Positions 1 to 54,107 of a stretch of DNA of 64,000 nucleotides are shown here, piece by piece. The DNA is from a virus. Location: positions 11,047 through 75,046 of IMG/VR virus record IMGVR_UViG_3300045988_101367, one strand, 5' to 3'. The position numbers were made by a program, and so were the translations under genes. How positions within the stretch are numbered: position 1 is the first letter of the stretch; each line of letters opens with the position of its first letter. The notes below the pieces were generated by a model, which was not told where the DNA came from, ran no database searches, and saw only the letters and a program-made list of their open reading frames with translations.

Positions 1-632
1 GATTCTTCTAACTCTCCTTTACGAAATTTCTAATTAAGCCACTTTTTAAAATCTTCCATAGTTCCTCCATCGTCAAATTTTAAAAGACCTCCTTCAGCAT
101 TATAAGATATAGGTTGATTATCCTAACTCCACTATTTAAAGATAGCTTCAACATCCTATCCAGAATTTAAGGCTTTTCTCAGAGCCTTTCTCTAACCTCC
201 AGTATAAGCATATGGATCTAGTCCTCTACTAGACATAAAAGCTCTTACTTGTGATCGATTAAAATTATTAATTGGGGCATTTATAGAAGTTATTTCCTAT
301 ATACTAGGAGGAAGAGTAGCCTAATCTATTAACTGATTAGTAGCAGGACTATTAAACTATGGTTTAAAATATATTCCAATATTATAATCTTGTCCTGCAT
401 ATTTACCTTTAGTAGGATTCTAAAATACTCCCATCATTTGAGAACCCATATTAGAGGCAGCCTTCTAAAAATTAGAATTATCTCCAACATTACCTTTGAA
501 TTTACTAAAATAATCCCCAATTCCGGAATTCTATTCCTCTTTAGTCATAGTATTATAATCATTTCCATTCCAAGAAAAATAGCGATTACCTGCTTTTCTA
601 GCAGCATTAAATGCCTGTTTAAATTTCAACAT
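1..632 (-). CDS. late-region protein, 3' partial (gene runs past window start); TAG-recoded
   Basis: ATG at 632-630 (minus). A long protein-like frame (MLKFKQAFNAARKAGNRYFSWNGNDYNTM...) is open only if plus-strand cta (minus TAG) codons are read as sense. Plus-strand ORFs 390-665 and 705-908 are antisense to it. Confidence 0.4.
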
Positions 633-661
633 TTTTATTTGGATATTTTATATAAAAATAA

Positions 662-892
662 TTAGGAAAATTTGGATTTTTCAATCTTCTAAAGGTCCTT
701 AGTATTGAAAATTGCTTCCTACAAAACTCCATCTGTAGTAAACCATCTACACTTTATTCCAATTAATACATCAGTATCTTTATTTTTAAATACAGTAGTT
801 ATTTTTTTAACTACTAGCATCTTAGGAACATTTCCAATGTCCTACTTTAAAGTAACAACCTCACCTGGTTGGAAATATATTTTATCTTCCAT
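662..892 (-). CDS. small late protein (76 aa) with 3 in-frame TAG
   Basis: MEDKIYFQPGEVVTLK(Q)DIGNVPKMLVVKK...; ATG overlaps the 3' end of the upstream gene by 11 nt. Confidence 0.35.
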
Positions 893-1463
893 TGAATCTC
901 TCTGTTAAATCATCATTTACTATTGCTATTAATCTTGCTTCATTTACAAGCTCTAAGCCTTGTTTATAGAAAGGCACTGGAATAATACTAGTTCTAGGAT
1001 AGAATACACAATCTCCTATCTGTGCCCATTTACATTCAGGACCTACCTCTACAATTACTCCTGATTTGGTAATATTCTCTTCTTCCTCAATTTCGCCATT
1101 ATCATTATTTTTATATTGAGGTTTTTGACCTCCTAAATCAATGATAAGTCCGCCAACCTTTTTAATACGTTGAAAAGGATTCTCAGCAAAAGGTTTTATA
1201 ATAATATAATTACCAATAGGTCTAATCTCAGCTTTAGATGACATAGTAAATTCTTCAACGGCTTTCTCTAAAGCTTTAGCATGTTCTTCAAAACGATTTA
1301 CATACTCATCTACTTGAGTATTAAACTTACTAATAGCTTCATTCTTTACTAAATCATCTGCTTGTTTCTCATTAACATTAAAGTGCATACCACCACTTTC
1401 TAAGCCATTAACTGTCATGGCTAACTTTTCATTCTGATTAAAAATTGCTCTGTCTTTACTCAT
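882..1463 (-). CDS. GroES/Cpn10-like co-chaperonin domain protein with N-terminal coiled-coil extension
   Basis: C-terminal IRPIGNYIIIKP...GGLIID...KSGVIVEVGPEC...IGDCVFYP...LIAIV resembles the GroES beta-barrel pattern; standard ORF from the track. Confidence 0.5.
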   Translation of the reverse strand: MSKDRAIFNQNEKLAMTVNGLESGGMHFNVNEKQADDLVKNEAISKFNTQVDEYVNRFEEHAKALEKAVEEFTMSSKAEIRPIGNYIIIKPFAENPFQRIKKVGGLIIDLGGQKPQYKNNDNGEIEEEENITKSGVIVEVGPECKWAQIGDCVFYPRTSIIPVPFYKQGLELVNEARLIAIVNDDLTERFNGR

Positions 1464-1464
1464 A

Positions 1465-1737
1465 TCACCATTTATTTACAGGACAGTGTGCATTTACAAG
1501 TCTAGTCTTAGCATTAAGACGACATCCACAACCATTTTGATAACCTGGTCGTGCATTTGTACTCACATCTCCCGTTTCTACATTTAACCATAATCTACTA
1601 TTACACATTCCGCCTAGAGCGTTACTAAATAACGGGCATCTATGACAGATTTTTAATCTAGCTTCAGAAATATCAGTATCTAACCCTAGGGCTTCTTTAG
1701 CATGACCTTCTATAATCTAAGCAATAGGTAATTTCAT
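1465..1737 (-). CDS. small Cys-rich zinc-ribbon protein (CxxC...CxxC), one in-frame TAG
   Basis: Manual minus-strand translation: MKLPIA(Q)IIEGHAKEALGLDTDISEARLKICHRCPLFSNALGGMCNSRLWLNVETGDVSTNARPGYQNGCGCRLNAKTRLVNAHCPVNKW. Confidence 0.4.
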
Positions 1738-1738
1738 A

Positions 1739-2656
1739 TTAATATACAATAGGTTTACGTCTCGCTACTTTTAATTGTTGTTTTTTCTTTTTGTAGTAGT
1801 CAGCAAGCATACGTTCTACTTCATCTTTTCGATAAATACAATGATATAGAGTATTTTTCATATTATGATCATAATGATTAAGAATTAAATCTTTAATCAC
1901 ATATTCTGGATGTCTCTGTTGAAGCATAAATGCATAAGTAGAAAGTTGCATCTCATAGTGACCATAATTGCAATCCTCAATAGTGTTTAAAGGGTATTGC
2001 ATTTTAGTAGTACCTCTAGTAACTGTATTAAATCCTCCTTTTAAGTCTATTTTTTTATTAGTTTTATGGTCTACAATAGTAACTTCATTACCATATTTAA
2101 CCATTAAATCAATTTGTCCTGCTAAGTTTAAAACATTATCAGGAGTAGACCAGGAAATTAAATACTCAGGATATACACCATTTTCTAAGTCTAATTTAGT
2201 ATATCCCTCTTTACATATAAATTTACCTCCTAATCCAAATTTCTGTAAAGGCTTATCATCCTTCATATTGTAAAAAGAATGTTCTAATTGAGAATGAATT
2301 TTTGTTCCTCTCTCACAAGACTCTATTTTATTAGCTTCCCATTCATCAAGAATGTTCTGTTGTTCCTTATTAAGGTCATTAATGTCTACAGAATAAGCCT
2401 CTAAAATTTCTTTAGTAATTCTGTGTGTATTAAGTAAAGTCTTTTTTAAATCTTTCCATACATCTGTATCTAGAATTTTTTCCAAAGCTTTATACTTAGA
2501 CCAAAAATCTGAATCAAAAGGTTGTGCATAACTTCCTATTAAAGTAGTTACTGAGATATACTCTTTTTTTGGATTATTAATATCCCAATAAACGTGAGTA
2601 GAATCATTGAAAGCTACTCCATCATTTTCTTTATCAATCTTCATTGTCATTGCCAT
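1739..2656 (-). CDS. PD-(D/E)XK family nuclease (RecB/Cas4/YqaJ-like fold)
   Basis: Motif GQIDLMV-x12-TIVDHKT fits D...(D/E)XK; 305-aa ORF from the track. Confidence 0.5.
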   Translation of the reverse strand: MAMTMKIDKENDGVAFNDSTHVYWDINNPKKEYISVTTLIGSYAQPFDSDFWSKYKALEKILDTDVWKDLKKTLLNTHRITKEILEAYSVDINDLNKEQQNILDEWEANKIESCERGTKIHSQLEHSFYNMKDDKPLQKFGLGGKFICKEGYTKLDLENGVYPEYLISWSTPDNVLNLAGQIDLMVKYGNEVTIVDHKTNKKIDLKGGFNTVTRGTTKMQYPLNTIEDCNYGHYEMQLSTYAFMLQQRHPEYVIKDLILNHYDHNMKNTLYHCIYRKDEVERMLADYYKKKKQQLKVARRKPIVY

Positions 2657-3344
2657 TTACAGTATCATCAAGTATTGTAGATAATCGTTGAATTTGTGGA
2701 GAAATAACTGTATTATAATAACCTAACTCATATTGTTTAGGCTATTTATACAAAACTACTATTATTCCTATAGGATTTCTAACTCCTTCTATAGGATATA
2801 AAGCAGCTGAGTATGCCCCACTCTATTCTAACTTTTTATATAATCTAGGGAAAGTGTTTTTAATTTGAGGAAGACTATCAACTCTTAAATAAGTAGTATC
2901 ATCAATTTTACTTAATTCTTCTTGGTAATTAGTATACTATAAAGTCTACCAATAATCTCCGACATATTCATCAGAATATGATTTTACACTTTCTCTTATA
3001 CAATCTAAATAAATATAACTAAAACCCTGTAAGCTATGCTTAGTATTATGATAACTTAATAGCAAAACATTACTACAATCAGGATCTTTTATTTTTATAT
3101 TATCAATACACTAAGCTATATAAGGAGCTTGTTTAAATCCATTATCTTCTTCTTTACGTAATTCTTCTTTCTATTTTTTTAAAGCACTAGAAAGAGTTTC
3201 TTCATAATAACTTCTAGGAATTGGATTTAGTATAAATATTAATAATACAAAAATAATTATAGTTTTAGTTTCTGAAGTTAAGTTGGAAATAAGATTCCAT
3301 AATTTTTTTAAATAATCTAAAATAACCATTACAATTTTTTCCAT
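2634..3344 (-). CDS. hypothetical late protein (~236 aa) with several in-frame TAG
   Basis: ATG at 3344-3342 and TGA at 2636-2634. Gene length is a multiple of 3 only in the TAG-readthrough frame; it overlaps the nuclease gene start. Confidence 0.4.
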
Positions 3345-3490
3345 ATTACTATAAGTAATATTTGTATATATGTTATCTATAATAACATTATTACTATATT
3401 TAATAGGTAAAGTTATTATTATTTTGTACTATTTAAGTATATATATAGGTTATTTATATTCAAAAGTATTTTAATCTTATTTATTACATT
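3345..3490. promoter_or_regulatory. divergent intergenic region between minus-strand and plus-strand late operons
   Basis: AT-rich 146-bp gap with genes diverging on both sides; no specific promoter motif verified. Confidence 0.25.
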
Positions 3491-4255
3491 ATGACTAATT
3501 CTGAATTACAAGAAAGAATTTGTTCTGCCTATTAGGATTTTAAGATTAAAAATCAGTATAGTTTTATAAATAAACTAAAGAAAGGCGGATAGATAAAAGA
3601 TAGAAAAGATACTATTCATATAAAAGATAAAAATAAGGGTAAGTTTACTGCCTCAGCTAAAGCAGCTGGAGAATCTGTACAGGAGCATGCTAAATCTATA
3701 TTAAATAATCCTAATGCTACTCCTTTACAAAAACGTCGAGCTAATTTTGCTAGAAATGCTGCTAAATGGAAACATGCTAATGGAGGCACTATTCTTAAAA
3801 TGTAGTTAGCAGGTAAGATGCCTGGAACTAGGAGTCAATATAATAATGTGACTTAGATATATCAAGCTTTAGTAGATAAAGGAGTTACCCCACAGGCAGC
3901 TTTAGATTTAACTAACCAAAAGGTTGCAGAAAAAGGTTGGACTGGATTCGCTACTGGAGATAATAAAAAATATCCTAATGCACAATCTTTTGCAGACCAT
4001 ATAATTAATTGGCATAGTAGAATGTATCCAGACTCACTTAAAGCCTAGAATTTTTAGTAGTACTATGATGGAATACAAAAAAATGCTAAGTACATGTATA
4101 ACTCTGAAAAAGGCTATAATGGTTACAGAAAAGATTTATTACTTACAAGACCTGGGGTAAAGAAAAGAATTAATTATTATAGAGCTACTAAAGGATTAGG
4201 ACCATTAGCTTTAGTTAATTTTAATTAGCCTGGTAATTATTCTAGTTATGCGTAA
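3491..4255 (+). CDS. hypothetical late/virion protein (254 aa) with 7 in-frame TAG
   Basis: Continuous protein-like frame MTNSELQERICSAY(Q)DFKIKN...GWTGFATGDNKKYPNAQSFADHIINWHSRMYP... only if TAG is sense; ends TAA 4253-4255. Confidence 0.45.
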
Positions 4256-4493
4256 GAATAAATATTATAAAGAAAATAAAAAGATTTTAAATGAACATAA
4301 AACACAATGTATAATATGTGGTGAATCAGCTAAATGTTGTTTAGAATTTCATCATACTGGAGAAAAATTATTTAATATATCACAAGCTGTAAGTCATATA
4401 CCTACAGATTTATTTATTAAAGAATTATCTCAAACAGTTTGTGTTTGTAAAAATTGTCATTCTAAAATACATAATGGTTTGATAAAATTATGA
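4248..4493 (+). CDS. HNH endonuclease (small, free-standing)
   Basis: CIICGESAKCC-LEFHH-x-N...CKNCHSKIH matches the HNH zinc-finger nuclease signature; standard code; overlaps neighbours by a few nt. Confidence 0.6.
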   Translation: MRKNKYYKENKKILNEHKTQCIICGESAKCCLEFHHTGEKLFNISQAVSHIPTDLFIKELSQTVCVCKNCHSKIHNGLIKL

Positions 4494-5152
4494 GTGAATA
4501 TTTTAAATATGAAGCTTTAGATATTCCTGATAAACCTGCTACAGAAGTACTAAAAAGTAAAGGTTTAGATTTAGATTTTACTCCTAAACAATATTAGTAT
4601 ATTCCTGAATTAAATACTGGAGATTTTCATATTAATGGTTTAAATTTAGATGGATATTTTTCTATTAATAAAGCTAAAGAGCCTGTACAATATAAATATA
4701 CTCAGCTTAAATTAAACCATAATACTCCTAGTAAAAATAAATAGGTACTAGAATAGACTTTAGATAAATATGGTATCACTGGAAACAAGAAAACTACTTT
4801 AATGAAGATAGCTTCTCTAGAATCAGGATTTAATTCTAAAGCTCAATCTAAAAATAGTTCTGCTGCTGGATGGTTCTAGTTTATAGATAGTACTAGAAAT
4901 AAATATTCTAATTTATCTAGAGAACAGTTTAAAAATAGTCCTGATGCACAAGTATTAGCCGCATCACAATTATATGATGATAATGCAAGATTTTTAAGAA
5001 ATAATGGTATAGCAGCTACTGGAGAAGCTATAGCAGCATCATGGTTAAATCCAAAATGGACTAAAAATTATTATAAGTATGGTATTGCAGGAGGGTCTGA
5101 TGCCAATGGTACTAGTGTTGCAAAATATATAAATAAATTTAGAAATGCCTAA
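4490..5152 (+). CDS. lytic transglycosylase (SLT-domain) peptidoglycan hydrolase, TAG-recoded
   Basis: LESGFNSKAQSKNSSAAGWF(Q)FIDSTRNKY matches the SLT ES...AxGLMQ motif. The motif Gln is encoded by TAG, which supports TAG=Gln. Confidence 0.6.
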
Positions 5153-5788
5153 AATTTTGGAAGAATTGGATCGTCAAGTAGATAAATGGGAACCTACCGC
5201 GGCAGCTATATCTTTAGGTAGTTTAGGACTAGGTGCAGGTATAAGTACTACCGCTGTAGGTGCTCCTATAGGAGGAATTATTGCTGGAGTAGGTTAGTTG
5301 CCTTCTTTAGTTATAGATGGTTATCAAGCTGGTAGAGGATGGTACAAGACTTTTAAAGAATCCCCAAGTAATTTTGGAAATGCCGTATGGAATACTTTGG
5401 AAACTGGGGCAGATATATTAGGAGCTAAATTTGCATCAGCTTTAGCTAAGGGAGGTTCTAATTTTCTTAGATCTAGCGTATACAAACCTGGTTATTACCC
5501 TAAACATCATTCTCCAAGAGTTAATGCTATGCGAAAGAGACAAGTCGACGTAGTATTAAATTAGCAGAAAAAGAAGCTACTGAAAAATTGGCTAAAAGAG
5601 GAGTTCGATCAAGTCAAGGTTCATACTTTACATCTAAATTAAACTAGGAATTAAATAAACCTTATTTAGAGTAGGTAGCTAAAAGGAATACTGTAGTAGC
5701 AAATGATGTTACTAAATTAAGTCCTAAAATATAGTTACCTATTTAGATTATACCTAATATTATTGATATACATGCCAGAAATAAATAA
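5145..5788 (+). CDS. Gly/Ala-rich membrane-associated late protein; reading frame switches -1 between about 5525 and 5564
   Basis: Frame 0 gives MPKILEELDRQVDKWEPTAAAISLGSLGLGAGISTTAVGAPIGGIIAGVG(Q)LPSLVIDGYQAGRGWY.... A protein-like frame with 5 TAG continues in the -1 frame (…AEKEATEKLAKRGVRSSQGSYFTSKLN(Q)ELNKPYLE(Q)VAKRNTVVANDVTKLSPKI(Q)LPI(Q)IIPNIIDIHARNK) to TAA 5786-5788 and has no ATG of its own. Confidence 0.3.
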
Positions 5789-6287
5789 TAATAATTATAA
5801 TATTTGGAATAAATAGTTATCTCAAGCATGGGGTAATTAGGATTTATCTAAAGACCATTACGATTATAGAAAATACTATAATGACCAACCTATAGTAGCT
5901 TGGCTATAGTTAAATAGTATTCTAGCACATAATTGGAATAGGTATATTCCTACTGGGCATTTTCCTGATGAAGGAGCTTCAGGGACTTATAAAACTAAAA
6001 CTCATCCGACTTATCCAGATTTAGGAGATAAATCTTGGAGTAGAGATAATAAGATATATTATTTAAGTAAAGATCAATATATAAAACCTAATAGTGGTTA
6101 GCCTTTAGATTATACTATGGACTATCTAGGTTCCGATTATGACTATAATAATGGTGGAACTAAAGTAGTTTATGATGGAGCTAATGTTCTCCCAACATTG
6201 TATATTACTAAAACTAAAGGTAGTGGATTTAATTTAAAACCCAATAAAAATAATAATGGATACATATATTTTGACAGAAAAGATTGA
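5772..6287 (+). CDS. hypothetical late protein (171 aa), TAG-recoded
   Basis: MPEINNNNYNIWNK(Q)LSQAWGN(Q)DLSKDHYDYRKYYNDQPIVAWL(Q)LNSILAHNWNRYIPTGHFPDEGASGTYKTKTHPTYPDLGDKSW...; ends TGA 6285-6287. Confidence 0.45.
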
Positions 6288-6471
6288 GGAATTACAAAGA
6301 TTTTTAGATTTTGTAAGTGAGAGGGATAAATAGTTATGGGATAAATATTTAAAAAAATATGAAACAGGTGATTAAAACTGGAAAAGGATTACTATGGAAA
6401 ATAGAACACCCAGTAGAAATATCATATTCTAAGATTACTCTAGATTCTTTATTAAAACTATGTGAAAAAAT

Positions 6472-6687
6472 ATGAAATAGTTTTTAATTAAATTAATAAC
6501 AGCACATACTGGAATAAGTAGTAAAAGAGTGTGTGGAATATTAGGATGGATAGTAAGTTTAATTATTCTAATATACTGTTCTATTAGTTAGATACAAGCT
6601 CCTGATATGATAGATACAGTTTTATATTGTTGTATGGGATTACTAGGTATAGATAGTATAACTAGTATATGGAAAAATAAAGTATAA
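6472..6687 (+). CDS. small two-TM membrane protein (holin-like candidate), 2 in-frame TAG
   Basis: MK(Q)FLIKLITAHTGISSKRVCGILGWIVSLIILIYCSIS(Q)IQAPDMIDTVLYCCMGLLGIDSITSIWKNKV; two hydrophobic helices. Confidence 0.3.
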
Positions 6688-6689
6688 AT

Positions 6690-7826
6690 ATGCCAATAGT
6701 AGATGAGAGTAAACAAAATAAAGGAGTAAATAATAATACTCGGAATAAATAGATGGCTATAGATATGGAATATTATAATAGATTAAATCATCCTAGATTT
6801 AAATCTTCATATCTTGGTGCTAAATATTAGTAGAGAGTTATTCCCGTTAGAACTTTAAATGGGGTACAAGATGTATTTGTAGATAATAGAGGGACTATAA
6901 AATAGGGTGGGCATACTAATTTTAAATTATATAATTATAGTAATAAGAATAGAACCCATCCTATAAAAGGAGCTTATGCTAGAGAAGTAGATAGTTGGAA
7001 TAATAATACTAGTCCTATTAAAGCATTAGTTAATTCAGGAATAGGTTATGCTTTAGCTCCAGCTGCTTAGGCAGTATATGATTATACTAAAGGTGCTTTA
7101 GATATATCTAAGAATCTAACTAAAGCTAGTAATTATTTAGTAATGCTTCCTGTAATAGGATATGCTGTAAAAGTTCCTTTAAAACGTGGAGTAGAAGTAG
7201 CTATGAGAACTTCTAATAATGCGAATCCTATAGAAGACATAGTATATAATATGCATAAGGCAAGTCCTAAAAAACATGCTGGAGTATTTTCTTATATATC
7301 AACTGGTGTAGGTTACAATACCTATGCTCCTGAAGCATATACTGGATTTTAGAAAGCAGCTAAAGGCAATGATATGATTGATGCTTATTTATATAATAAA
7401 ACTATAAATCCTTCTTATGGAGTAAGAAAGATAAATGTAGATTATGGTCCACATGAAAATTATATAAGAAAGATATATCCTTATAAAGATATTCCTGTAT
7501 ATGAAAATACAGAAACTTTAGATTTCTTTACTAAGAAACCTATGTAGAAAGCTTCTAATATAACTAATAAAACTCCTTGGAAAGGTGCTAATAATAATCT
7601 AGATTTTGGAGATAATGGAGTTGAGGCTGCTGGACATTTAGTTTAGGAAGGAACATCTAATGGTAAGAAAGTATATAGAGCACAAGATATTTGGAAGTTT
7701 AATCCTGATGAATATAAGTAGAAATGGAGTTCATATGATTTAGACAGTAAAGCTGTATTAGGATTAAAAATATTAGATAAATTAGGAACTCCAGTAATAG
7801 TAAGAACACCATGGCTGTATAGATAA
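6690..7826 (+). CDS. hypothetical late/structural protein (378 aa) with about 9 in-frame TAG
   Basis: ATG 6690 to TAA 7824-7826 is a multiple of 3. The frame is continuous and protein-like, and includes track ORF 7143-7352, only when TAG is sense. Confidence 0.5.
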
Positions 7827-8042
7827 TTACTGATAATGATTCAATACTGATATGAAGATGGGTAGTTGTATGGTAGAAGAAAATCAAATAAGATCCCTTT
7901 TAAAATTAATTCTGATAAAGCTAATAGTATAATATTTCCATAGGTTTAGGCTAAAGGAGTAGATCCTAACATCTACTTTAGTATACCACTCGGCAAAATA
8001 TAAAGAAATGCCCACTGCTAAAAAAATATCTACTCCTAAATA

Positions 8043-8918
8043 GAAAGAAGAAACAATAGTGGTAAATAGTTGATTAATTTAGTAGGAAATGGATTAAGTA
8101 GAAAACTATAGTTATTTTTTGATTCAGAACCTGAGCATACTAGTAAAAGAATTAAAATTCCTAATAAAAAAGTAACTAGAAATAAGAGGAGAGAAAATTT
8201 AGAAATAGAAATATCTCCAAATAGTTATACTATAAATGATACTACTAAAATAAACTCTAGAAGATATCGTATACCAGAATCCATAAATTTAACAAAGTAT
8301 ACTTTTGGTTATAGAAATAGAGGTGATTATACTCCTATAAATAGTATAGCAGCTCCTATTACTGCTTTTTCTAATTTCAAATCTAAAGAAAGTATATCTC
8401 CTAATAATTAGAATTATATAGGTATAGATTCTATTGGTAAATTTGTTTTTGGTAAATATTCAGATATTCCTAATGGAAGTATGATTTCTCCAACATTTAA
8501 AAATATAGTTACTGGTTTTAAAACAGATTCTAAAGATAATGTATTATTCATGGAAAGTAATTCTAATGGTTCTAAAAAAAGTCCTATATTAAATGCTATA
8601 GTAAATGGTAAATCTGTAAATAACAGATTAAATTTCTTAGCTAATAATAATAGAACTGATGAATATGGTTCTATAGCTGGAGGAAGAATAATTATATAGG
8701 CTGGTAAAGAAGTTCGTTTAGTTTCTGGAAGTATAGATAATATTAGAGATGAGATAGAGGCTATGAAATCTAGAAACAATGTTAAAACAGTAGATTTATA
8801 TACTCTAGATAATGGTACTTATCATTCAGGATTAAGAACCTTTGATAAAATATTTACCAGAGATGATTTATTAGAATATGATGCTGGTGGAGGAAATTTT
8901 TTGTATATAAAGCAATAA
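8043..8918 (+). CDS. hypothetical late protein, C-terminal ~290 aa; start unresolved
   Basis: Frame open from 8043 with TAG as sense and includes track ORF 8481-8699. No ATG in the first ~60 codons. An upstream short ORF 8008-8073 lies in the +1 frame, so a -1 shift or indel is possible. Ends TAA 8916-8918. Confidence 0.35.
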
Positions 8919-8925
8919 TACCACA

Positions 8926-8969
8926 ATAGCCGAAGTTTCTCAAATGAGAAGCCTCGGCTATTTTTTTTT
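8926..8969 (+). terminator. rho-independent terminator
   Basis: atagccgaagtttctc / gagaagcctcggctat stem (~14 bp, 2 mismatches) followed by T9. Confidence 0.6.
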
Positions 8970-9002
8970 AAAATTAATAAATATCCATCCCCAAATATTT
9001 AT

Positions 9003-9160
9003 TAATAAGTAACAGATAATTCATTTAACTTATCGCAAAAATCAAGAGTTAATTGATTATCTTGTAAATCATTATCTCCTATAGTATCAATAATCTACTG
9101 TACTTCATTAAGTACTTTGTTCATTTTAGACTTTAAGTCTTTTAATTTTTGGTTAGTCAT
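9003..9160 (-). CDS. small protein (52 aa) with 1 in-frame TAG
   Basis: MTNQKLKDLKSKMNKVLNEV(Q)IIDTIGDNDL...; start overlaps the stop of the upstream gene. Confidence 0.25.
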
Positions 9161-9444
9161 TAATTAATTTTTATATAATCATTAACATCTAGATTATCAT
9201 ATATAGAAGTCATTGTATATCCTGTAATTGGATTTCTATAATGATATTTTTTAATTTCTATATCTTCCTCTTCTGAATTAGAATTTATATTTTGGTTGTC
9301 TTTAATCCATTGGTCTAAATCAGCTTCTGTCCCATTCTCTAATTGAAATAGAATCTTAGGTTCTGATTTTAATCGTTTTAATTTTTTAGTAAGATTAGTT
9401 GTTTTTAAAATCTTACCATTTAATTCATAAATTGCTGCTATCAT
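9160..9444 (-). CDS. hypothetical acidic protein (~94 aa)
   Basis: Track ORF 9160-9456 uses a TTG start inside the tRNA; the first ATG (MIAAIYELNGK...) is at 9444-9442. Confidence 0.4.
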   Translation of the reverse strand: MIAAIYELNGKILKTTNLTKKLKRLKSEPKILFQLENGTEADLDQWIKDNQNINSNSEEEDIEIKKYHYRNPITGYTMTSIYDNLDVNDYIKIN

Positions 9445-9445
9445 G

Positions 9446-9517
9446 TTCTCCCACAAGGATTCGAACCCTGACTAAAAGATTTAGAGTCTTCTGTGCTAAC
9501 CATTACACCATAGGAGA
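9446..9517 (-). tRNA. tRNA-Sup(CUA), amber suppressor
   Basis: Hand-folded cloverleaf: acceptor TCTCCTA/TGGGAGA, D-stem GTGT/GCAC, anticodon stem GAAGA/TCTTT with loop CTCTAAA (U33, anticodon CTA, A37), T-arm CAGGG-TTCGAAT-CCTTG, discriminator A. No CCA encoded. Confidence 0.7.
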
Positions 9518-9705
9518 ATATTATCTTATAAATAACTACTAACACTAAAAGGATTTTCAGTAGAAGTAGTTTTATTATCACTAGTGTTTATTGTAATAAA
9601 TCCATTATGTGGTATATCTTTTAAAACCATATAGTTAATTTAGGTCCATTAATAATATTTACTAGTTCTATTAATTGAGATACTGTAAGATTAGAAACTA
9701 TCTTA

Positions 9706-10008
9706 TTAATTTTTTGTAATGTTTCTATCATTTAAAAAATCCACTATGTGTTTAAATTCTTGTTTATATTTTTTATATTTAGAATTATCTAAATTAGAAG
9801 AAAAATCTTCTAAAGATATATCTGAGATAATTCCAAATATTAGACAAGCATTGTTAAATGTTTCATCATCTAATTTACTACAATATTCTTCAAATTCATC
9901 TACCTTTTTAGTCATGGTTATATGAATTACATTATCAATAACCTATAAATTTATATTATACTAATCAGGAAGGTCTTTAATACTTTGTATTAGTTGTTCT
10001 TTATTCAT
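9706..10008 (-). CDS. hypothetical protein (~100 aa) with 2 in-frame TAG in an N-terminal extension
   Basis: Track ORF 9706-9915 extends upstream through two TAG to ATG 10008-10006 (MNKEQLIQSIKDLPD(Q)YNINL(Q)VIDNVIHITMTKKVDEFEEY...). Confidence 0.35.
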
Positions 10009-10125
10009 TTAATATTTCTTTTTGATTACACGAGTAATATAGTCGAGGTAGGGAATATTAAAAGTTAATTTTTGTAAAAGTTAATATTCTAAGATTTTTA
10101 AATTAAAATTTTAAAAATTCAATTA

Positions 10126-10593
10126 CTAAATAAACTTATACTCAATTATATTTTTTATAATTTGAGTTCTATCAGATATTTTACCTTTAAAAAAGTATTC
10201 AGGATTTAAATAGTAAACAGCTTTATATCTAGAATCTTTTAATAACATCTTTTTCTTTACTAAAGAAGTAATAGTATTACGTATAGTTCCAGCAGCTAAG
10301 TTAGTTTTAATTTTAATAGTATCTCTAAGTTCTTCATCTAAAGAAATCTTATTTCCTGGAAGTGCCCTATCTTTATCTTCATAATAATTAGAAGTATACC
10401 ATAAAACAGCTAATACATTAGACTCTGCTTTAGATAACTTATAAAATTCTTCATTATCTCTTAAATATATCTGGCAGAATTGTTCAGCACTAACAGTTTT
10501 AATAGCTGATAATATCTCTCCACCCACTCCAACTTTAATTGACTCTATTTGTTTCATATTAACATTTGTTTTAATTAAAATTAATTTATTCAT
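10126..10593 (-). CDS. hypothetical protein (~155 aa), possible DNA-binding regulator
   Basis: Track ORF uses a TTG start; the first ATG gives MNKLILIKTNVNMKQIESIKVGVGG.... No confident family assignment. Confidence 0.35.
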   Translation of the reverse strand: MNKLILIKTNVNMKQIESIKVGVGGEILSAIKTVSAEQFCQIYLRDNEEFYKLSKAESNVLAVLWYTSNYYEDKDRALPGNKISLDEELRDTIKIKTNLAAGTIRNTITSLVKKKMLLKDSRYKAVYYLNPEYFFKGKISDRTQIIKNIIEYKFI

Positions 10594-10609
10594 ATGATTC
10601 AAAATAAAT

Positions 10610-10637
10610 TCACAAAAATTATGTCACAAAAATTATG
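10610..10637. repeat. 14-bp direct repeat x2 (tcacaaaaattatg)
   Basis: Two tandem copies seen directly, just upstream (in minus orientation) of gene 10126-10593. Confidence 0.8.
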
Positions 10638-10820
10638 AATAGAACAAATGTAGGAATGAATGAAGTGAATCCTCCAATGAATAGAATAAATCTGTGAGTG
10701 CATAAAAAATTTGTAAGTGTCTGATAATCAAGGAGTTATGAAAATACCCTTCTTATCTTATACGTGAAAAATATTTTACATTTTTAAAATTTTAAAATTT
10801 TTAAGGTTACTTTATATATT

Positions 10821-10830
10821 CCCCCCCCCC
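10821..10830. repeat. C10 homopolymer tract
   Basis: cccccccccc in a genome with <30% GC. Further C-runs (ccccttagagcccccc) lie at 10919-10936. Confidence 0.9.
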
Positions 10831-10993
10831 GTTATTTTTTAGGAACTGTTACATTAATGGCTTTTATTGAAGTAGTTAATTTTTAAATTAAATTTAGTGA
10901 TTTACACGGGTGTTCACTGCCCCTTAGAGCCCCCCACATATTTGGAGTAAAAACCAAACAAAAAAATTATTAACAAATTTAAAAATTAAAACT

Positions 10994-11413
10994 ATGTCAC
11001 AGATTACAGTAGGTAAAGATGGCGATGTTCGCCACAGCGCTATGTCAGCTAGACAAATAGCTGAAGAAACAAAGCAGAGTACAAACATCAGATTGGCATT
11101 TGGTGCCATAGTACAACTGAATGCGCAGGATTTTACAATTCCTGCGAACATGATGACTGGGCAGCCAGCTCAGCCATCGCAAATACTCACCGCCAGCGGT
11201 ATCACCGTTGGTAATTTGGAAGGGGAGCGTACTGTGAATGTTACTCGCATCTTGTCTTTAGTTTGCCTAGGTTGCAATAACTTAACACAGGCATCTACTT
11301 GGTTGGCTGACCATCATGTAGTAGGTTTTGATGTTGATATTGAAACATTACAGAACTATGGCAACGCACGAAGATTTTCTAATGTGCGTTTGGTAACTGA
11401 GAATGCTGAGTAA
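10994..11413 (+). CDS. hypothetical protein (139 aa), GC-rich moron-like gene
   Basis: ORF composition (~45% GC by eye) differs sharply from the flanks. It is bounded upstream by C-tracts and downstream by a strong terminator. No family recognised. Confidence 0.5.
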   Translation: MSQITVGKDGDVRHSAMSARQIAEETKQSTNIRLAFGAIVQLNAQDFTIPANMMTGQPAQPSQILTASGITVGNLEGERTVNVTRILSLVCLGCNNLTQASTWLADHHVVGFDVDIETLQNYGNARRFSNVRLVTENAE

Positions 11414-11417
11414 CAAA

Positions 11418-11454
11418 GGGGAGAGAGTAATCTCTCTCCTTTAAAATTTTTTTT
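11418..11454 (+). terminator. rho-independent terminator
   Basis: ggggagagag-taat-ctctctcc stem followed by tttaaaattttttttt. Confidence 0.6.
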
Positions 11455-12516
11455 ATAAATTTCTTTGTATTTTTTGTATATGTTCAAAACTATTAAGGGA
11501 GTTTATGGGAAAAATAAACTTGTTGACTTAGAAACTTTAGAATTCTACAATGTTCAACTTCCGACACAAATTGTTGGAATTTTTATGTTGTTGATTATTG
11601 AGAATGATAAAGTTATCGTGGTCAAGTATGCTAATTGGAGAAATAGCTGGAATTGGTGGGGAATAAGTTGGGATTGGGTGAGGAAGGTGAGTTATTTATA
11701 TGGTTTGGTATGAGTTTTTGTGTTCACACAAACCTCCCATCCACCAAACAAACCTTTCCCAATTTCCCAATCTCTCTCACTAAAACCAACTTATATATCA
11801 CTCCAAAAATCATCATCACATCAAATAAATTTTAAGGATATTGTACAATAATATTTTTATTCTTTGTAAGATGTTTAATCAAAAATAATAAAAACAAAAG
11901 GTTTTTACCCAAAAGTTGAAATCCCTGTCTAAAGTTTACTTTAGACGAAATTCTATATCGTAAATTAGCTAAGTTGATGAATCTTATAATTAATGGGAAA
12001 TTTACACAACGAAAAATGTATTATGTATCTATTGATACTGCGATATTTAAACTTATAAACAATTTAACTATTTAAATAAAATGAAGAAATACAACATTTG
12101 GAATAAAATTTTCCATAAAAGGAAATTAAACAAGAATGTTGCGGATTATAAACTTCAACAAAGTCTTGTTAATAGTTATGAGTCTAAACGATACTCCATA
12201 AAAGAATTTGGCGTAAAGGGTTTCGTAATGCTAACCTTGATCCAGATAAATATGGAATGTTTAAGATATATAAATGAGGTTTATATTGGAGGAATCTATG
12301 GTCTTAATACTCGAACTATCGCACGATTCTAAAAAAGAACCATATACACAGACATGCTATGTCTTATGTGCTTATAAAAGATTGTTAAAATCTAATATTA
12401 TAGCACTTGCAGATAATGCTAAGTTATTAGTACCAACAAAATAATTATAAGATTCTTACAATCCTACTTATAGGAATGGGTAAAATAGCATATAATAATT
12501 TTAAAGAAATGAACTC

Positions 12517-15730: not shown

Positions 15731-15811
15731 GCGGAGTTAGCTTAATGGCTAGAGCACCTCACTTCCACAATTCATAGAGAGGTTATATTGGTTCGAATCC
15801 TTTACTCCGTA
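15731..15811 (+). tRNA. tRNA-like gene with non-canonical anticodon region
   Basis: Acceptor GCGGAGT/ACTCCGT, normal D-arm, T-arm ATTGG-TTCGAAT-CCTTT (two U-U mismatches). No 5-7-5 anticodon hairpin is present; only ACCTC...GAGGT pairs, around an 18-nt loop, so the anticodon is unresolved. Confidence 0.3.
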
Positions 15812-16240: not shown

Positions 16241-16324
16241 ACGGTAGTAGCTCAGTGGTTAGAGCATCTCTTTTTATAATAGGTCATTTCGAGAAGGTCA
16301 TTGGTTCGAATCCTTTCTACCGTA
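16241..16324 (+). tRNA. tRNA-like gene, long extra arm, anticodon loop TTTTATA (nominal anticodon UUA)
   Basis: Acceptor ACGGTAG/CTACCGT perfect, D-arm GCTC-AGTGGTTA-GAGC, weak anticodon stem TCTCT/ATAGG (one mismatch), same unusual T-arm ATTGG-TTCGAAT-CCTTT as the 15731 gene. Confidence 0.3.
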
Positions 16325-16406
16325 CAAATTTAATTTGATATATTGTTAGTGTGTTTGGATAAATCCTGTATTAGTACGTTACCACTATTCTCCTTTATAG
16401 AAATGT

Positions 16407-17106: not shown

Positions 17107-17780
17107 ATGAAATATGATTGGTCAAAAGAAAGAATTGAATCAGTTATTGCAGACTGCGATTCATTATCTTAGGTATTAGAAACATACCTAGAGCAGGTAA
17201 TAATACTGCTACATTAAGAAAGAAATTAGAGGAATTTAACATAGATTATTCACATTTTACTTATGGAGCAAAAGGTAAAAAAGGAATTGAAAATTATGTT
17301 CCAGTAAAAGAATATTTAGGTACTGGAAAATACATTCAAACTACCAAATTAAAAGAAAAGTTAATTAAAGAAGGTCTTAAAAAGAATGAATGTGAAAATC
17401 CTAAGTGTCCTTGTAAGAATGGATATTGGTTAGACAATCCTTTGATATGCTAACTACATCATATTAACGGCAATAATAGAGATAATAGATTAGAAAATTT
17501 ACAGATGTTGTGCCCAAATTGCCATTCACAAACAGATAATTATTGTGGACAAGCTGCAAAATATTTCTGTGGTGCAAAAAAGAAGACAAAAGCTGCACGA
17601 TATTGTCCTAAATGTGCAGCCAAAATGGCACAAAAAGTAGATTTACCAACTAAAGATGATCTTATAAATAAATTTAAAGAACTAAAATCTTTTGTTGCTG
17701 TAGGTCAATTTTATAAGGTATCAGATAACACCGTTAGAAAATGGTGTAAGAAATACCATATACTAAAAAAGAATTAGTAT
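17107..17780 (+). pseudogene. HNH endonuclease, disrupted (frame change plus internal TAA)
   Basis: C-terminal frame carries CPCKNGYWLDNPLIC-(TAA)-LHHINGNNRDNRLENLQMLCPNCH, a classic HNH motif. The N-terminal MKYDWSKERIESVIADCDSL... frame is offset by one and itself contains a TAG. Confidence 0.5.
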
Positions 17781-19451: not shown

Positions 19452-19523
19452 AAATGTGTAGCTCAGTGGTTAGAGCATCTATCGTTGAGTAGAAGGTTGG
19501 CAGTTCAAATCTGTCCACATTTC
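19452..19523 (+). tRNA. tRNA with atypical anticodon arm (possible 8-nt loop)
   Basis: Acceptor AAATGTG/CACATTT perfect, D-arm GCTC-AGTGGTTA-GAGC, T-arm GGCAG-TTCAAAT-CTGTC. The anticodon region folds as TCTA-TCGTTGAG-TAGA. Confidence 0.4.
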
Positions 19524-19719
19524 CTTTTTCTATCATTATTTTAATTTTTAATTTATTAAAAATAAAAGAGCTTTGCTTGTGAAAGTAGAGCTCTTATCAA
19601 AATTATGCGAAAACTTTAATAAGTCGGAGGACTTACAAAAACTCAAAAACAGTGTGTCTTAGTTGCAACGTTCTCTTGACTGAGAAAGGAGAGGATTAAC
19701 GACCCTCAGACACATCTTC

Positions 19720-24227: not shown

Positions 24228-24593
24228 ATGACTAGAGAAGAAGCAAAAAAGTTATTGCCTATTATTAAGGCATACGCAGAAGGAAAGAAAATTATAGTAA
24301 AAGATAAAAGACTCTCTGATAAAGAGTATAACTGATCTGAAGTAAATGATTGCTCTTTTAATATAAAGCAATTTGATTACCGTATCAAACCAGAACCTAT
24401 TTACAGACCTTTTAAGGACGCAGAAGAGTGCTGGAATGAAATGCAAAAACATCAGCCAATTGGATGGACTAAACTAAAAGGAGCAATCGAGTACAGTTTT
24501 ATAACAGATGTTAATGATAGTATTAATTATTCAGATGCTATTAAAGAATATACATTTGCAGATGGGACTCCATTTGGTATAAAAGAAGAATAG
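24228..24593 (+). CDS. hypothetical protein with one in-frame TGA (24333-24335); terminates with TAG
   Basis: MTREEAKKLLPIIKAYAEGKKIIVKDKRLSDKEYN-TGA-SEVNDCSFNIKQFDYRIKPEPIYRPFKDAEECWNEMQKHQPIGWTKLKGAIEYSF...; frame is continuous across the TGA. Confidence 0.35.
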
Positions 24594-27321: not shown

Positions 27322-27654
27322 GGGGCATTCGTGGTTTTGATTGTATAGGAGATAAGAAACACAGCAAGACAGTTGGAGAGACAACAAAACAATAATCGCT
27401 AGAGTTATCAATATGACTCCTGTTTCTTACGCTATTGCAGCCTAAGAAACCGAGCAGCACTTGCTTGGGAACGGAAAGGTGCATTATTCTTTTATTTCTT
27501 TATTAGTTCTCTGTATACTTTAGGAACAGAGTGGTGGAAGTTGGCAATGTTAATCTTGTCAACCCTAACAGACAAGGATAGTCTTTAAAACCTATGCTGT
27601 AAGAACGTTTTGATGCAAATATGCAAGACTGGAGTTCGACTCTCCAATGCTCCA
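27322..27654 (+). ncRNA. ssrA: tmRNA (SsrA-like) candidate
   Basis: 5' GGGGCAT pairs with 3' ATGCTCC (one G-U), giving a tRNA-like acceptor with discriminator A. 3' T-arm TGGAG-TTCGACT-CTCCA. Internal tag-like reading frame ...aat atg act cct gtt tct tac gct att gca gcc TAA (…SYAIAA*) resembles the ...YALAA tmRNA tag ending. No protein ORF in the region. Confidence 0.55.
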
Positions 27655-27688
27655 CTAGTTCATAGAACTATTTTATTATTTGTTTTTA

Positions 27689-28699: not shown

Positions 28700-28966
28700 A
28701 TGGGTAAACAAATTTGGTTGCAAGATGGCAACGTTTTTAGTCAGGGTAGTGCGACAACAGTATCTCATCCTGAAGGATTACCGAAAGGTATTTATGAAGT
28801 AAAAGTCTCAATGACTGGATTTTACTTAAGTAAAATCGCTGAGTCTTTTACGTTTGATTACAAACTGTATGGTCTAAACCAAAAATTTATTAATTATGTC
28901 TTAAAGACATATGATAACACTACAGGTAATTTAGGTGTTCTGTTAGACGGAATCAAAGGAACTGGT
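28700..28966 (+). CDS. AAA+ ATPase, exon 1 (ends in Walker A ...LLDGIKGTG)
   Basis: The ORF terminates right after GIKGTGKI. Joining ...ggt (28966) to exon 2 aaa aca gtt... restores the GxxxxGKT Walker A. Confidence 0.5.
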
Positions 28967-54084: not shown

Positions 54085-54107
54085 TAATTATAAAGTAAGT
54101 AGTTTTT

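Follow-up and report, generated by a model that had tools for sequence, protein, structure and literature searches.

Late-gene reassignment of TAG or TGA with suppressor tRNAs has been published for the Zeta group of crAss-like phages (Yutin et al. 2021, PMC7886860; Borges et al., preprint, bioRxiv 10.1101/2021.08.26.457843), whose genomes range from 145 to 192 kb (Yutin et al. 2021, Nat Commun 12:1044, PMC7886860; Babkin et al. 2025, PMC12386605). Borges et al., whose clades are named Lak, crAss-like, Jade, Sapphire, Agate, Garnet, Amethyst and Topaz, proposed an early-to-late code-switch model (bioRxiv 10.1101/2021.08.26.457843), and genetic code 15 has been validated in crAss-like phages by metaproteomics (Peters et al. 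2022, Nat Commun 13:5710, PMC9523058). The window analyzed here is a 64,000-nt stretch of viral DNA (positions 11,047 to 75,046 of IMG/VR record IMGVR_UViG_3300045988_101367). Late-gene amber recoding is real in the phage it comes from, but the strategy is one already published for the Zeta group. In our reading, to which we give a probability of about 0.88, one genome uses two codes: late genes read TAG as glutamine by means of the phage's own suppressor tRNA(CUA), early genes keep the standard code, and timing, charging and competition with release factor 1 (RF1) are proposed.

The window most likely derives from a large gut phage of ~176 kb in the Zeta group, judging from similarity and shared traits. 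Among named phages, the portal and the primase have relatives only in Crassvirales and among Flavobacterium phages, and the window's traits agree with those of the Zeta group (PMC7886860), making the crAss-like comparison drawn in the initial annotation an apt one. The portal and primase similarity, the ~176 kb genome and the intron load fit this group, with membership based on similarity searches and shared features rather than on a tree of TerL, MCP or portal sequences. The likeness extends to gut origin, size (the two scaffolds of a close, 95% relative total 176.6 kb, and related contigs are as long as 185 kb), a glutamine reading of TAG mostly in late genes, a suppressor tRNA plus many further tRNAs, very dense introns and homing endonucleases, a replication block with DnaG, DnaB, SNF2 and an AAA+ ATPase, and TAA codons following TAG stops. 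As in the phages of Borges et al., structural and lysis modules are recoded, replication genes are standard and a suppressor tRNA is present; unlike in those phages, no release factor/aminoacyl-tRNA synthetase (aaRS) "code change module" is detectable in the window, and the tRNA stands alone at the junction. No release factor, aaRS or amidotransferase that could aid the switch turned up in the 64 kb, which we count against the two-code reading. TAG-to-glutamine reassignment in a human gut crAss-like phage is shared with Peters et al., who had peptides where we have sequence alone, and the window belongs to a different lineage with a larger genome. Phassvirus/phAss-1 is another large gut phage in which TAG stands for glutamine in structural genes; it carries tRNA-SUP-CTA genes and lacks a dedicated aaRS. 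Its layout, however, is siphovirus-like, its tape measure is 3149 aa long and its relatives have Firmicutes hosts (Babkin et al. 2023, PMC10607447); the window gave no nucleotide match to it in the phage collection.

Layout of the recoded and standard-code regions

In the genes for the virion, packaging and cell-wall degradation, TAG serves as a glutamine codon. Only the final ~9 kb of this module, its right edge, lies in the window, whose left edge cuts the block:

1-632, minus strand: late gene, N-terminal 210 codons, 11 in-frame TAGs; runs past the window's left edge (complete homologue in the relative, about 350 aa)
662-892, minus strand: small late gene, 76 aa, 3 TAGs, the last of which (689-691) may be the terminal codon; weak phrog_3261 match
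882-1463, minus strand: GroES-like co-chaperonin, no TAG, 8 CAA/CAG
1465-1737, minus strand: Cys-rich small protein, phrog_13558, faint DUF6171 match; 1 in-frame TAG, at 1717
1739-2656, minus strand: PD-(D/E)XK exonuclease, no TAG, 12 CAA/CAG
2634-3344, minus strand: late gene, 6 in-frame TAGs; hydrophobic N-terminus, by eye a putative membrane helix
3491-4255, plus strand: late gene, 8 in-frame TAGs; opens the rightward arm, divergent from the leftward late genes
4248-4493, plus strand: HNH endonuclease, no TAG
4490-5152, plus strand: SLT lytic transglycosylase, 4 in-frame TAGs (4595, 4742, 4754, 4877)
5145-5788, plus strand: Gly/Ala-rich hydrophobic protein, 6 in-frame TAGs; in two frames through a 1-base deletion in an A-run at ~5567, a single 219-aa ORF in the relative
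5772-6287, plus strand: late gene, 4 in-frame TAGs
6690-7826, plus strand: late gene, 378 aa, 9 in-frame TAGs
8070-8918, plus strand: late gene, 3 in-frame TAGs; last clearly recoded gene ahead of the tRNA
9002-9160, minus strand: small ORF, 52 aa, coding status uncertain, 1 in-frame TAG; on the tRNA's strand, downstream of it
9706-10008, minus strand: small ORF, 100 aa, uncertain, 2 TAGs if started at the first ATG; upstream of the tRNA

Between 1 and 8918, ten genes carry 55 in-frame TAGs, and their frames are open and coding-like only when TAG is translated; TAG alone breaks them, with no TAA or TGA interruptions. About 15 genes had initially been thought to need TAG translation. Read-through is indeed required, but the clear cases number ten, with 9002-9160 and 9706-10008 as possible additions and with 882-1463, 1739-2656 and 4248-4493 free of TAG. 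Counting stop-to-stop ORFs of at least 120 aa, TAG read-through raises coverage from 0.38 to 0.88 in the bin 1-4000 and from 0.00 to 0.78 in the bin 4001-8000 and leaves the remaining bins nearly unchanged, while TGA read-through has no effect. A codon-usage log-odds model trained on standard-code genes of 27-64 kb only scores the TAG-spanning frames at 0.36-0.63 bit/codon, compared with 0.43-0.76 for the displayed training genes and at most 0.17 for all off-frames. The Pfam SLT match (E=1.7e-8) extends across TAG, 42 of 50 TAG positions are retained in the 95% relative, and TAG-bearing homologues of block genes number in the thousands in metagenomes (2945 matches below 1e-5 for the portal alone).

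The block was originally placed at 1-9520; it is recoded there, but the window edge truncates it and its full extent is far greater, about 95 kb with portal, terminase and tail genes in the ~176 kb relative. Its continuation in that genome includes a portal with 46 TAGs, the large terminase, tail-fibre-like ORFs, an ORF of 2072 aa (64 TAGs) and one of 3401 aa (128 TAGs), which together with the SLT transglycosylase of the window bear out its description as a late-gene block.

From ~10.9 to 64 kb the plus strand carries tRNA genes along with genes for replication and nucleotide metabolism, and the standard code applies; the early genes include helicases, primase, Sak4, NrdD, NAMPT and PRPP synthetase. 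In-frame TAGs number 1.9 per 100 block codons (51/2660, to which a separate count adds 4 more) versus 0.08 in early genes (9/11529). The 84 early genes end in TAA (57), TGA (18) or TAG (9), and the claim that they keep TAG as a stop holds. The two ORFs offered as examples do terminate in TAG, but their coordinates need correction: 24228-24593 has its TAG at 24591-24593 but also an in-frame TGA at 24333 after the start at 24228, and the TAG of 17107-17780 lies at 17775-17777, not 17778-17780. A sigma-70 promoter scan (56 sites versus 58 expected) was uninformative on transcription units.

Recoding had been described as confined to the block. The early region does follow the standard code, but a single clear sense TAG lies outside the block, in this gene:

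29069-30127, plus strand: homing endonuclease, phrog_4645, apparently LAGLIDADG-type from motifs read by eye; internal TAG at 29780-29782

The partition is not absolute, because three block genes lack TAG and this endonuclease outside the block has one; we count these exceptions against the two-code reading. The endonuclease sits in a ~1.3 kb intervening sequence that splits an early AAA+ ATPase gene within Walker A (exons at roughly 28700-28969 and 30281-31165), a direct parallel to the Agate phages, in which a recoded group I intron endonuclease lies within an early gene (Borges et al., bioRxiv 10.1101/2021.08.26.457843).

A proposed early-to-late switch

The nucleotide sequence demonstrates the sense use of TAG, its glutamine-like behavior, the presence of the tRNA and the two-part split of the genome; from gene content and layout we infer a link to the stage of infection. 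At entry, the host ribosome would terminate at TAG, and under this proposal full-length products would therefore come from standard-code genes only. The suppressor tRNA would then build up, charged with glutamine by host enzymes, and outcompete RF1 at UAG so that late proteins could be completed; the timing, the charging enzyme and the competition with RF1 are what we infer here. Early genes ending in TAG would be shielded because a TAA or TGA follows within a few codons. Backup stops are nearer after early TAG stops (median 3 versus 6 codons; Mann-Whitney p=0.035, n=9), and 3/9 of these stops are exact TAG-TAA tandems. One backed-up TAG stop is that of 53314-54087 and another is found in the following gene:

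41183-42499, plus strand: nicotinamide phosphoribosyltransferase, early gene; TAG stop with backup, as a TAG-TAA tandem end

It is also conceivable, if unlikely, that the recoding is real but mainly serves a purpose other than timing. The suppressor tRNA could be an anti-host weapon that reads through TAG-ended host or defence genes, or part of a lock, with dependence on it barring other elements or non-permissive cells from late-gene expression; TAG accumulation in late genes would then be a tolerated consequence. An anti-defence reading was proposed by Yutin et al. (PMC7886860), and some Zeta phages keep suppressor tRNAs without recoding, every TAG then being followed by TAA (Babkin 2025, PMC12386605). 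The close backup stops of the window's early TAG genes are in line with such a role, although this statistic is weak (n=9), and a phage-borne tmRNA (27322-27655) could handle read-through products. However, the sharp split between TAG-free replication genes and TAG-rich structural genes is predicted by timing or gating and is not required by an anti-host role, and the TAG-free exonuclease and GroES-like genes within the block also suit gene-by-gene timing.

Probable glutamine at TAG and the suppressor tRNA

Returning to the two-code reading, codon comparisons indicate that TAG in the block most likely encodes glutamine, as the initial annotation argued from the SLT gene. The TAG at 4877-4879 in its AAGWF-TAG-F motif does fall on a glutamine site: GWF-TAG-F aligns with GWFQF of phiKZ gp144 (PDB 3bkh, 9xps), a conserved glutamine of the catalytic domain. 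Among portals ~57% identical, CAA/CAG stands opposite TAG in 20/50, 15/51 and 22/41 non-TAG codons, followed by K, E and D codons, and 9 of the 12 TAG substitutions between the window and the 95% relative are exchanges with CAA/CAG. The block is also depleted of CAG (CAG/CAA 14/53 versus 112/172 in early genes), and TAG makes up about 43% of glutamine-type codons in structural genes. At the TAG columns of the portal, Q fills 1943 of about 3900 cells among homologues of less than 65% identity, with four columns 85/85 Q, counts that are not fully independent because database translations presuppose the recoded table.

The tRNA reported at 9446-9517 (minus strand) is called by both ARAGORN (73 nt, anticodon CTA, 9445-9517, minus strand) and Rfam RF00005 (63.6 bits, E=1.8e-11, 9446-9517, minus strand), and its fold is a canonical cloverleaf. 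The gene marks the boundary of recoded and standard-code DNA, a junction position it also holds in 7 relatives, within a short leftward gene group that starts beside divergent early genes:

9445-9517, minus strand: suppressor tRNA, anticodon CUA, tRNA-Gln type with U1-A72; intron-less allele
10123-10593, minus strand: first gene of the leftward unit containing the tRNA; ends in a TAG-TAA tandem stop

Similarity places the tRNA in a tRNA-Gln lineage: it is 79-86% identical to the Azobacteroides phage tRNA-Gln(CUG), the phage AM24 tRNA-Gln(UUG) and the crAss cr7_1 CTA tRNA, all of which share its U1-A72. E. coli supE, the classical amber suppressor, is likewise a tRNA-Gln with a CUA anticodon, inserting glutamine at UAG against RF1. 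It is, however, a host mutation giving partial suppression, whereas the tRNA of the window is phage-borne, serves a genome-wide strategy and has C2-G71, U3-A70 and A73 in its acceptor. The E. coli GlnRS acceptor-stem identity set is G2-C71, G3-C70 and G73, and the absence of these pairs counts against glutamine, as does the tRNA-Arg(UCU) of phAPEC8-like phages, which is equally similar in the core (87% identity).

Even so, an amino acid other than glutamine, such as pyrrolysine, Tyr, Trp, Leu or Arg, is very improbable. TAG interchanges overwhelmingly with CAA/CAG and is rarely found opposite a Tyr, Trp, Leu or Arg codon, and both the phiKZ alignment and, within the limit just given, the Q-rich portal columns point the same way. 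The acceptor stem agrees with the tRNA-Gln relatives and not with tRNA-Arg(UCU). ARAGORN's "tRNA-Pyl" label is one it gives to any CUA anticodon; the tRNA forms an ordinary cloverleaf, unlike the atypical Pyl tRNA, and Pfam scans found no Pyl genes. Next to no likelihood attaches to undecoded TAGs in a decayed or mis-assembled block with an incidental tRNA(CUA), a reading for which the one genuine frameshift in the window and the many block proteins without a family match could be cited, and which is refuted by the TAG-only breaks, the full coding signal, the TAG conservation and the metagenomic recurrence.

Split suppressor tRNA genes in relatives

A less expected side finding is that in some relatives a probable group I intron splits the suppressor tRNA gene within the anticodon, and tRNA finders miss the gene; such an intron is absent from the text of Yutin 2021 (PMC7886860) and Babkin 2025 (PMC12386605). 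One version of the insertion is 223 nt long and has no ORF, another bears an endonuclease, and the insertion is present or absent at one exact site, with U as the last base of the 5' exon and G as that of the intron. Its Rfam scores of 16.8 and 13.6 bits are far under the gathering threshold of 50. Group I introns sit in the anticodon loops of bacterial tRNAs, for example cyanobacterial tRNA-Leu(UAA). The two resemble each other in an insertion in or next to the anticodon, the U at the exon end and the G at the intron end, the existence of versions with and without an endonuclease ORF, and the presence or absence at a single precise position, but in the relatives the interrupted gene is a phage suppressor tRNA and self-splicing is putative.

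Coding and extent of the TAG-recoded block

The left edge of the window reads as protein only when TAG is translated. We compared ORF coverage in 4-kb bins, counting stop-to-stop ORFs of at least 120 aa, with TAG, TGA, or TAA read through. With TAG read through, coverage in the first two bins reaches 0.88 and 0.78, up from 0.38 and 0.00 with the standard code, and in the other 56 kb it is nearly unchanged. Read-through of TGA has no effect on coverage, which rules out recoding of that codon; read-through of TAA lengthens ORFs throughout, as expected for removal of the most frequent stop in an AT-rich genome, and is uninformative. A codon-usage log-odds model trained on long standard-code genes between 27 and 64 kb, and on nothing else, gives the TAG-spanning frames 0.36–0.63 bit per codon, compared to 0.43–0.76 for the training genes shown, with each of the five alternative frames at 0.17 or below. 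Additionally, 1.9% of the codons of the block genes are in-frame TAGs, versus 0.08% in the early genes. The initial annotation, made from the sequence alone, had described these frames correctly, but its figure of about 15 genes was an over-count: ten genes within 1–8918 need read-through, with 55 TAGs in total (51 in a first count and 4 more past the frameshift of one gene), and three genes of the block are free of TAG. In the TAG-bearing block genes, TAG accounts for roughly half of the Gln-type codons.

The sole strong functional call among the window's recoded genes in PHROG and Pfam is an SLT transglycosylase (4490-5152), whose Pfam SLT domain match (1.7e-8) extends across the TAG codon at 4877-4879. 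PHROG and Pfam gave no match for seven of the ten recoded genes (1-632, 2634-3344, 3491-4255, 5145-5788, 5772-6287, 6690-7826, and 8070-8918), and as a consequence the label "structural" for the window's own block genes derives from the SLT gene and from synteny with a close relative. At ~5567, within gene 5145-5788(+), an A-run has lost one base (A5 in the window, A6 in the relative), and as a result this TAG-containing late gene of 219 aa falls into two overlapping frames; an assembly error, slippage, and a true frameshift are each conceivable causes. Two small TAG-containing ORFs, 9002-9160(-) and 9706-10008(-), adjoin the suppressor tRNA gene described below, and related contigs are 98–100% identical over both, so close that conservation is uninformative about them.

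The three TAG-free genes inside the block are the following:

882-1463, minus strand: GroES-like gene, no TAG, 8 CAA/CAG
1739-2656, minus strand: PD-(D/E)XK exonuclease gene, no TAG, 12 CAA/CAG
4248-4493, plus strand: HNH endonuclease gene, no TAG, 3 CAA/CAG

By our own arithmetic, the chance of finding no TAG beside 12 and 8 CAA/CAG codons is about 0.45^12 and 0.45^8, respectively, and the absence is thus unlikely to be fortuitous. It suggests that these genes must be translated before the code switch or that they were recently acquired.

The block continues well beyond the window. MT835539.1, an unannotated human-faecal phage scaffold, is 95% identical across window positions 1-12000 and extends the block 26.5 kb leftward, entirely on the minus strand and readable only with TAG translated. 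MT835492.1 (121.6 kb), a sister scaffold of the same relative, matches the window from 24.4 to 64 kb at 87–96% identity and, past this match, carries ~23 kb of standard-code genes followed by 58 kb of minus-strand TAG-recoded ORFs. Features of the two scaffolds are:

MT835539.1, block extension, minus strand: portal gene, 46 TAGs
MT835539.1, block extension, minus strand: 2072-aa ORF, 64 TAGs
MT835539.1, block extension, minus strand: tail-fibre-like ORFs
MT835539.1, r20628-25406 after reorientation, minus strand: large terminase in two pieces, split by two endonuclease ORFs matching phrog_4645
MT835492.1, recoded stretch, minus strand: 3401-aa ORF, 128 TAGs

The layout of the terminase gene (TerL) is consistent with interruption by introns or inteins. 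The two scaffolds of 121.6 and 54.9 kb sum to 176.6 kb and, if they abut, the recoded part of the genome amounts to roughly 95 kb. Window positions 1-9000, which the initial annotation had described, are therefore just the right-hand rim of the recoded region. The check it had proposed, whether the translated products match structural families, yields the SLT gene in the window and the portal and large terminase in the relative, and no family for the seven window genes that lack a match.

Glutamine as the probable meaning of TAG and the candidate decoding tRNA

A tally of the residues opposite TAG in portal proteins is not independent evidence, as the database proteins are full-length and evidently were translated with a recoded table, and for this reason codons were compared at the DNA level instead. 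In codon-by-codon portal alignments of the 95% identical relative and two relatives of ~57% identity, CAA/CAG stand opposite TAG in 20 of 50, 15 of 51, and 22 of 41 non-TAG codons; Lys, Glu, and Asp codons come next, and Tyr, Trp, Leu, and Arg are rare. Between the window and the 95% relative, 42 TAGs are conserved; TAG sites have undergone 12 substitutions, and in nine the other codon is CAA or CAG. The CAG/CAA counts are 14/53 in the block versus 112/172 in the early genes, and this depletion of CAG is the pattern expected from C-to-T change of CAG to TAG. When the SLT protein was compared with PDB sequences with its TAG masked as X, it aligned to the phiKZ gp144 lytic transglycosylase (SSATGWFQF in gp144, SSAAGWFxF in the window), placing a conserved Gln opposite TAG 4877-4879. 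The assignment of TAG to glutamine, first proposed from this motif, is thus upheld, and codon interchange agrees with it. Together with the kinship of the tRNA, the SLT glutamine, the portal codons, and the substitutions between window and relative make four lines of sequence comparison that point to glutamine as the meaning of TAG.

The predicted suppressor is also present. ARAGORN calls a 73-nt tRNA with anticodon CTA at 9445-9517(-), the Rfam tRNA model scores it at 63.6 bits (E = 1.8e-11), and its fold is a regular cloverleaf whose anticodon loop reads CU-CUA-AA. It is 79% identical to the tRNA-Gln(CUG) of an Azobacteroides phage and 85% identical to the tRNA-Gln(UUG) of Acinetobacter phage AM24, and a crAss-like tRNA that RefSeq labels Gln and that itself has the anticodon CTA is also kin to it (identity range 79–86%). 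A U1-A72 acceptor end is common to the window tRNA and these three Gln-labelled kin. In the core, the tRNA-Arg(UCU) of phAPEC8-like phages resembles the window tRNA just as closely, but its acceptor stem is different.

The identity set of E. coli GlnRS comprises U35, G10, a weak 1-72 pair, G2-C71, G3-C70, and G73. The window tRNA keeps U35, G10, and U1-A72 and has C2-G71, U3-A70, and A73 in place of the remaining acceptor elements, which lowers the likelihood that it is supE-like by E. coli rules without counting against insertion of glutamine. ARAGORN labels the gene tRNA-Pyl. Pyrrolysine tRNAs have an atypical pylT architecture and are accompanied by pylS and pylBCD genes; the window tRNA is an ordinary cloverleaf with normal D- and T-loops, which dismisses this label, and Pfam scans of part of the window's proteins found no pyl genes.

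The gene lies at the border of the two codes. Rightward late genes reach 8918 on its left, the tRNA sits within a leftward gene group running from 10593 down to 9002, and the early genes beyond 10.9 kb run divergently from that group. Seven relatives for which flanking sequence is available have the tRNA gene in the same position, between TAG-recoded and standard-code DNA. No second suppressor tRNA was found on the sister scaffold MT835492.1, no GGQ release-factor motif in the window, and no release factor, aminoacyl-tRNA synthetase, amidotransferase, or peptidyl-tRNA hydrolase in Pfam scans of 40 early proteins.

With the coding partition, the glutamine meaning of TAG, and the presence of the tRNA established at the level of sequence, the published code-switch model is the best-supported account of how the two parts of the genome work together, and from it we infer the timing, the charging, and the competition for TAG. 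Standard-code genes would be translated first; meanwhile the phage tRNA(CUA) would accumulate, be charged with glutamine by host enzymes, and compete with release factor 1, so that the TAG-containing virion and lysis proteins would be completed only after the suppressor had built up. Recoding is concentrated in structural and lysis genes and the replication genes are standard, with one exception, an intron-borne endonuclease.

The standard-code region and the lineage of the phage

From ~10.9 to 64 kb the window carries plus-strand genes for helicases, a DnaG primase, a Sak4-like protein, exonucleases, and NrdD, as well as NAMPT, PRPP synthetase, RNase H, a macro domain protein, and a dozen tRNAs. 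PHROG assigns the following:

54108-55118, plus strand: DnaG primase
50875-51957, plus strand: DnaB helicase
48899-50188, plus strand: SNF2 helicase candidate (the PHROG annotation reads "DNA helicase" and nothing finer)
28700 and 30281-31165, plus strand: AAA+ ATPase in two exons

Early genes stop at TAA (57), TGA (18), or TAG (9). The next TAA or TGA lies a median of 3 codons beyond the early TAG stops versus 6 in other genes, a statistically weak difference (Mann-Whitney p = 0.035, n = 9). Exact TAG-TAA tandems occur at three of the nine, 10123-10128(-), 42494-42499, and 54082-54087, and further early TAG stops, including those at 17775, 24591, and 25385, have a TAA or TGA nearby. TAG stops of Zeta-group crAss-like phages are likewise backed by a second stop (Babkin et al. 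2025, PMC12386605). The two early ORFs that the initial annotation had cited do end in TAG (24591-24593 and 17775-17777), but the starts that it gave them are invalid.

Beyond the block, the one codon that is clearly an internal TAG (29780-29782) belongs to a homing endonuclease gene; apart from it, the claim that recoding is confined to the late genes holds for the early region. Read through, the endonuclease covers 9-301 of 308 positions of phrog_4645 (190.6 bits); cut at the TAG, it covers 9-223 (151.7 bits). The gene lies in a ~1.3-kb insert that splits the early AAA+ ATPase gene (28700-31165) in its Walker A motif (...GIKGTGK | TVTAKEL...). With its exons joined, the ATPase matches phrog_2376 over 7-336 of 363 positions (171.7 bits), compared to 87-336 (100.7 bits) for the second exon alone. 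The same layout, a recoded intron endonuclease within an early gene, has been described in Agate phages (Borges et al., bioRxiv 10.1101/2021.08.26.457843).

Three tRNA-like genes of the early region have unusual anticodon regions. One of them, at 16241-16325(+), is called by ARAGORN as a tRNA-Stop(UUA) but is mispaired at two U-U positions of the T-stem and at one position of the anticodon stem; ochre suppression by this gene is rejected because of these mismatches and because most early genes (57 of 84) stop at TAA. Its alternative fold has an enlarged anticodon region, and it is conserved in the 95% relative. A second, at 15731-15811(+), was found by Rfam alone (47.1 bits) and has an 18-nt anticodon loop by eye, and a third, at 19452-19524(+), has a 2-base "anticodon". 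A tmRNA is called at 27322-27655(+) by ARAGORN (tag peptide ARVINMTPVSYAIAA) and by Rfam (49.1 bits, gathering score 47); it could have a part in ribosome rescue upon read-through of TAG stops. The only strong terminator is a bidirectional, hairpin-like element with a 12-bp stem and a T-run at 11415-11442, directly 3' of the first rightward early gene (10994-11413). A sigma-70 promoter scan of the window returned 56 sites versus 58 expected and is uninformative.

The comparison with crAss-like phages made at the outset is well founded. The named tblastn relatives of the portal, taken from the relative, are Crassvirales only (23–31% identity), and the window DnaG primase matches Crassvirales and Flavobacterium phages, with 31–35% identity among the Crassvirales matches listed. 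Contigs with a near-identical portal or the same tRNA reach 162–185 kb, and genomes of the Zeta group span 145–192 kb (Yutin et al. 2021, PMC7886860). With this group the phage shares a genome of ~176 kb, a large tRNA complement, and the set of DnaG, DnaB, candidate SNF2, and AAA+ proteins. Furthermore, it shares the group's load of introns and endonucleases, seen here in the split ATPase, the split TerL of the relative, the probable tRNA intron in relatives, and the HNH gene at 4248-4493. Further marks of the group are IHF, signature structural genes, and giant virion RNA polymerase subunits bearing a DxDxD motif; the relative does have giant ORFs, of 3401 and 2072 aa. Gene content and protein similarity thus make membership in the Zeta group probable. 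The recoding described here is already known as a strategy in a known lineage, its principle having been published for this very group; the late-gene model has been generalised (Borges et al., bioRxiv 10.1101/2021.08.26.457843), and peptides have proven the use of code 15 in crAss-like phages (Peters et al. 2022, PMC9523058). Our phage introduces no new concept and is a further clean example of one with two genetic codes and its own decoder at their border. The practical value lies in annotation, as the standard table turns the first 9 kb of the window and about half of the genome into meaningless fragments, and the TAG=Gln table makes the virion, packaging, and lysis genes readable.

Interrupted suppressor tRNA genes in relatives

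On MT835539.1 (~10010-11090), 1003 nt of inserted DNA with an HNH ORF separate anticodon bases U35 and A36 of the tRNA(CUA) gene, which ARAGORN does not call on this scaffold. The exact 5' exon of this gene recurs in nine IMG/VR contigs; the gene is intact in five of them and carries the 1003-nt insert in three, and in the remaining contig the insert is 223 nt long. This shorter insert (positions 700-922 of L017, a related contig) is ORF-less and occupies the same U35/A36 site. Split alleles number four among the ten related genomes examined (L001, which is MT835539.1, and the related contigs L017, L018, L019, and L021 being those cited); interrupted genes are found, for example, in:

MT835539.1: interrupted tRNA(CUA) gene
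IMGVR_UViG_3300045988_105372: interrupted tRNA(CUA) gene

Every interrupted allele has U as the last base of its 5' exon and G as the last base of the insert, and joining the exons in silico yields tRNA(CUA). The insert thereby displays traits of group I introns, namely U/G ends, one precise site, an optional endonuclease ORF, and joining that restores the gene. The group I model RF00028 scores the L017 insert at 16.8 bits (E = 0.065) and the L001 insert at 13.6 bits (E = 0.41), both far below the gathering score of 50. Group I is the only Rfam family reported for the 223-nt insert (E up to 1); the 1003-nt insert has four weak Rfam matches, of which group I has the lowest E-value. Within the 223-nt insert, the conserved core stretches aligned to the model are AGAGACUAUAC and GAUGAAGAAAUAGUCC, taken here as the R and S elements. 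These weak matches come from narrow scans only, and a wider Rfam search, covering 4 kb that include the tRNA insert of the relative, returned nothing at E up to 0.1.

We tentatively propose, at somewhat less than even odds, that the code-switch tRNA is a recurrent home for group I introns at U35/A36 in this lineage. If this is true, the TAG=Gln switch would depend on RNA self-splicing in some genomes. Ordinary tRNA finders would then miss the gene, and this would account for part of the recoded phages without a detectable suppressor, of which many are known (Yutin et al. 2021, PMC7886860; Borges et al., bioRxiv 10.1101/2021.08.26.457843). The literature that we searched makes no mention of an intron in a phage suppressor tRNA. 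ARAGORN reported nothing in three of the interrupted alleles and miscalled one as a tRNA-His in intron mode. The window's own allele of tRNA(CUA) is intact and intron-less.
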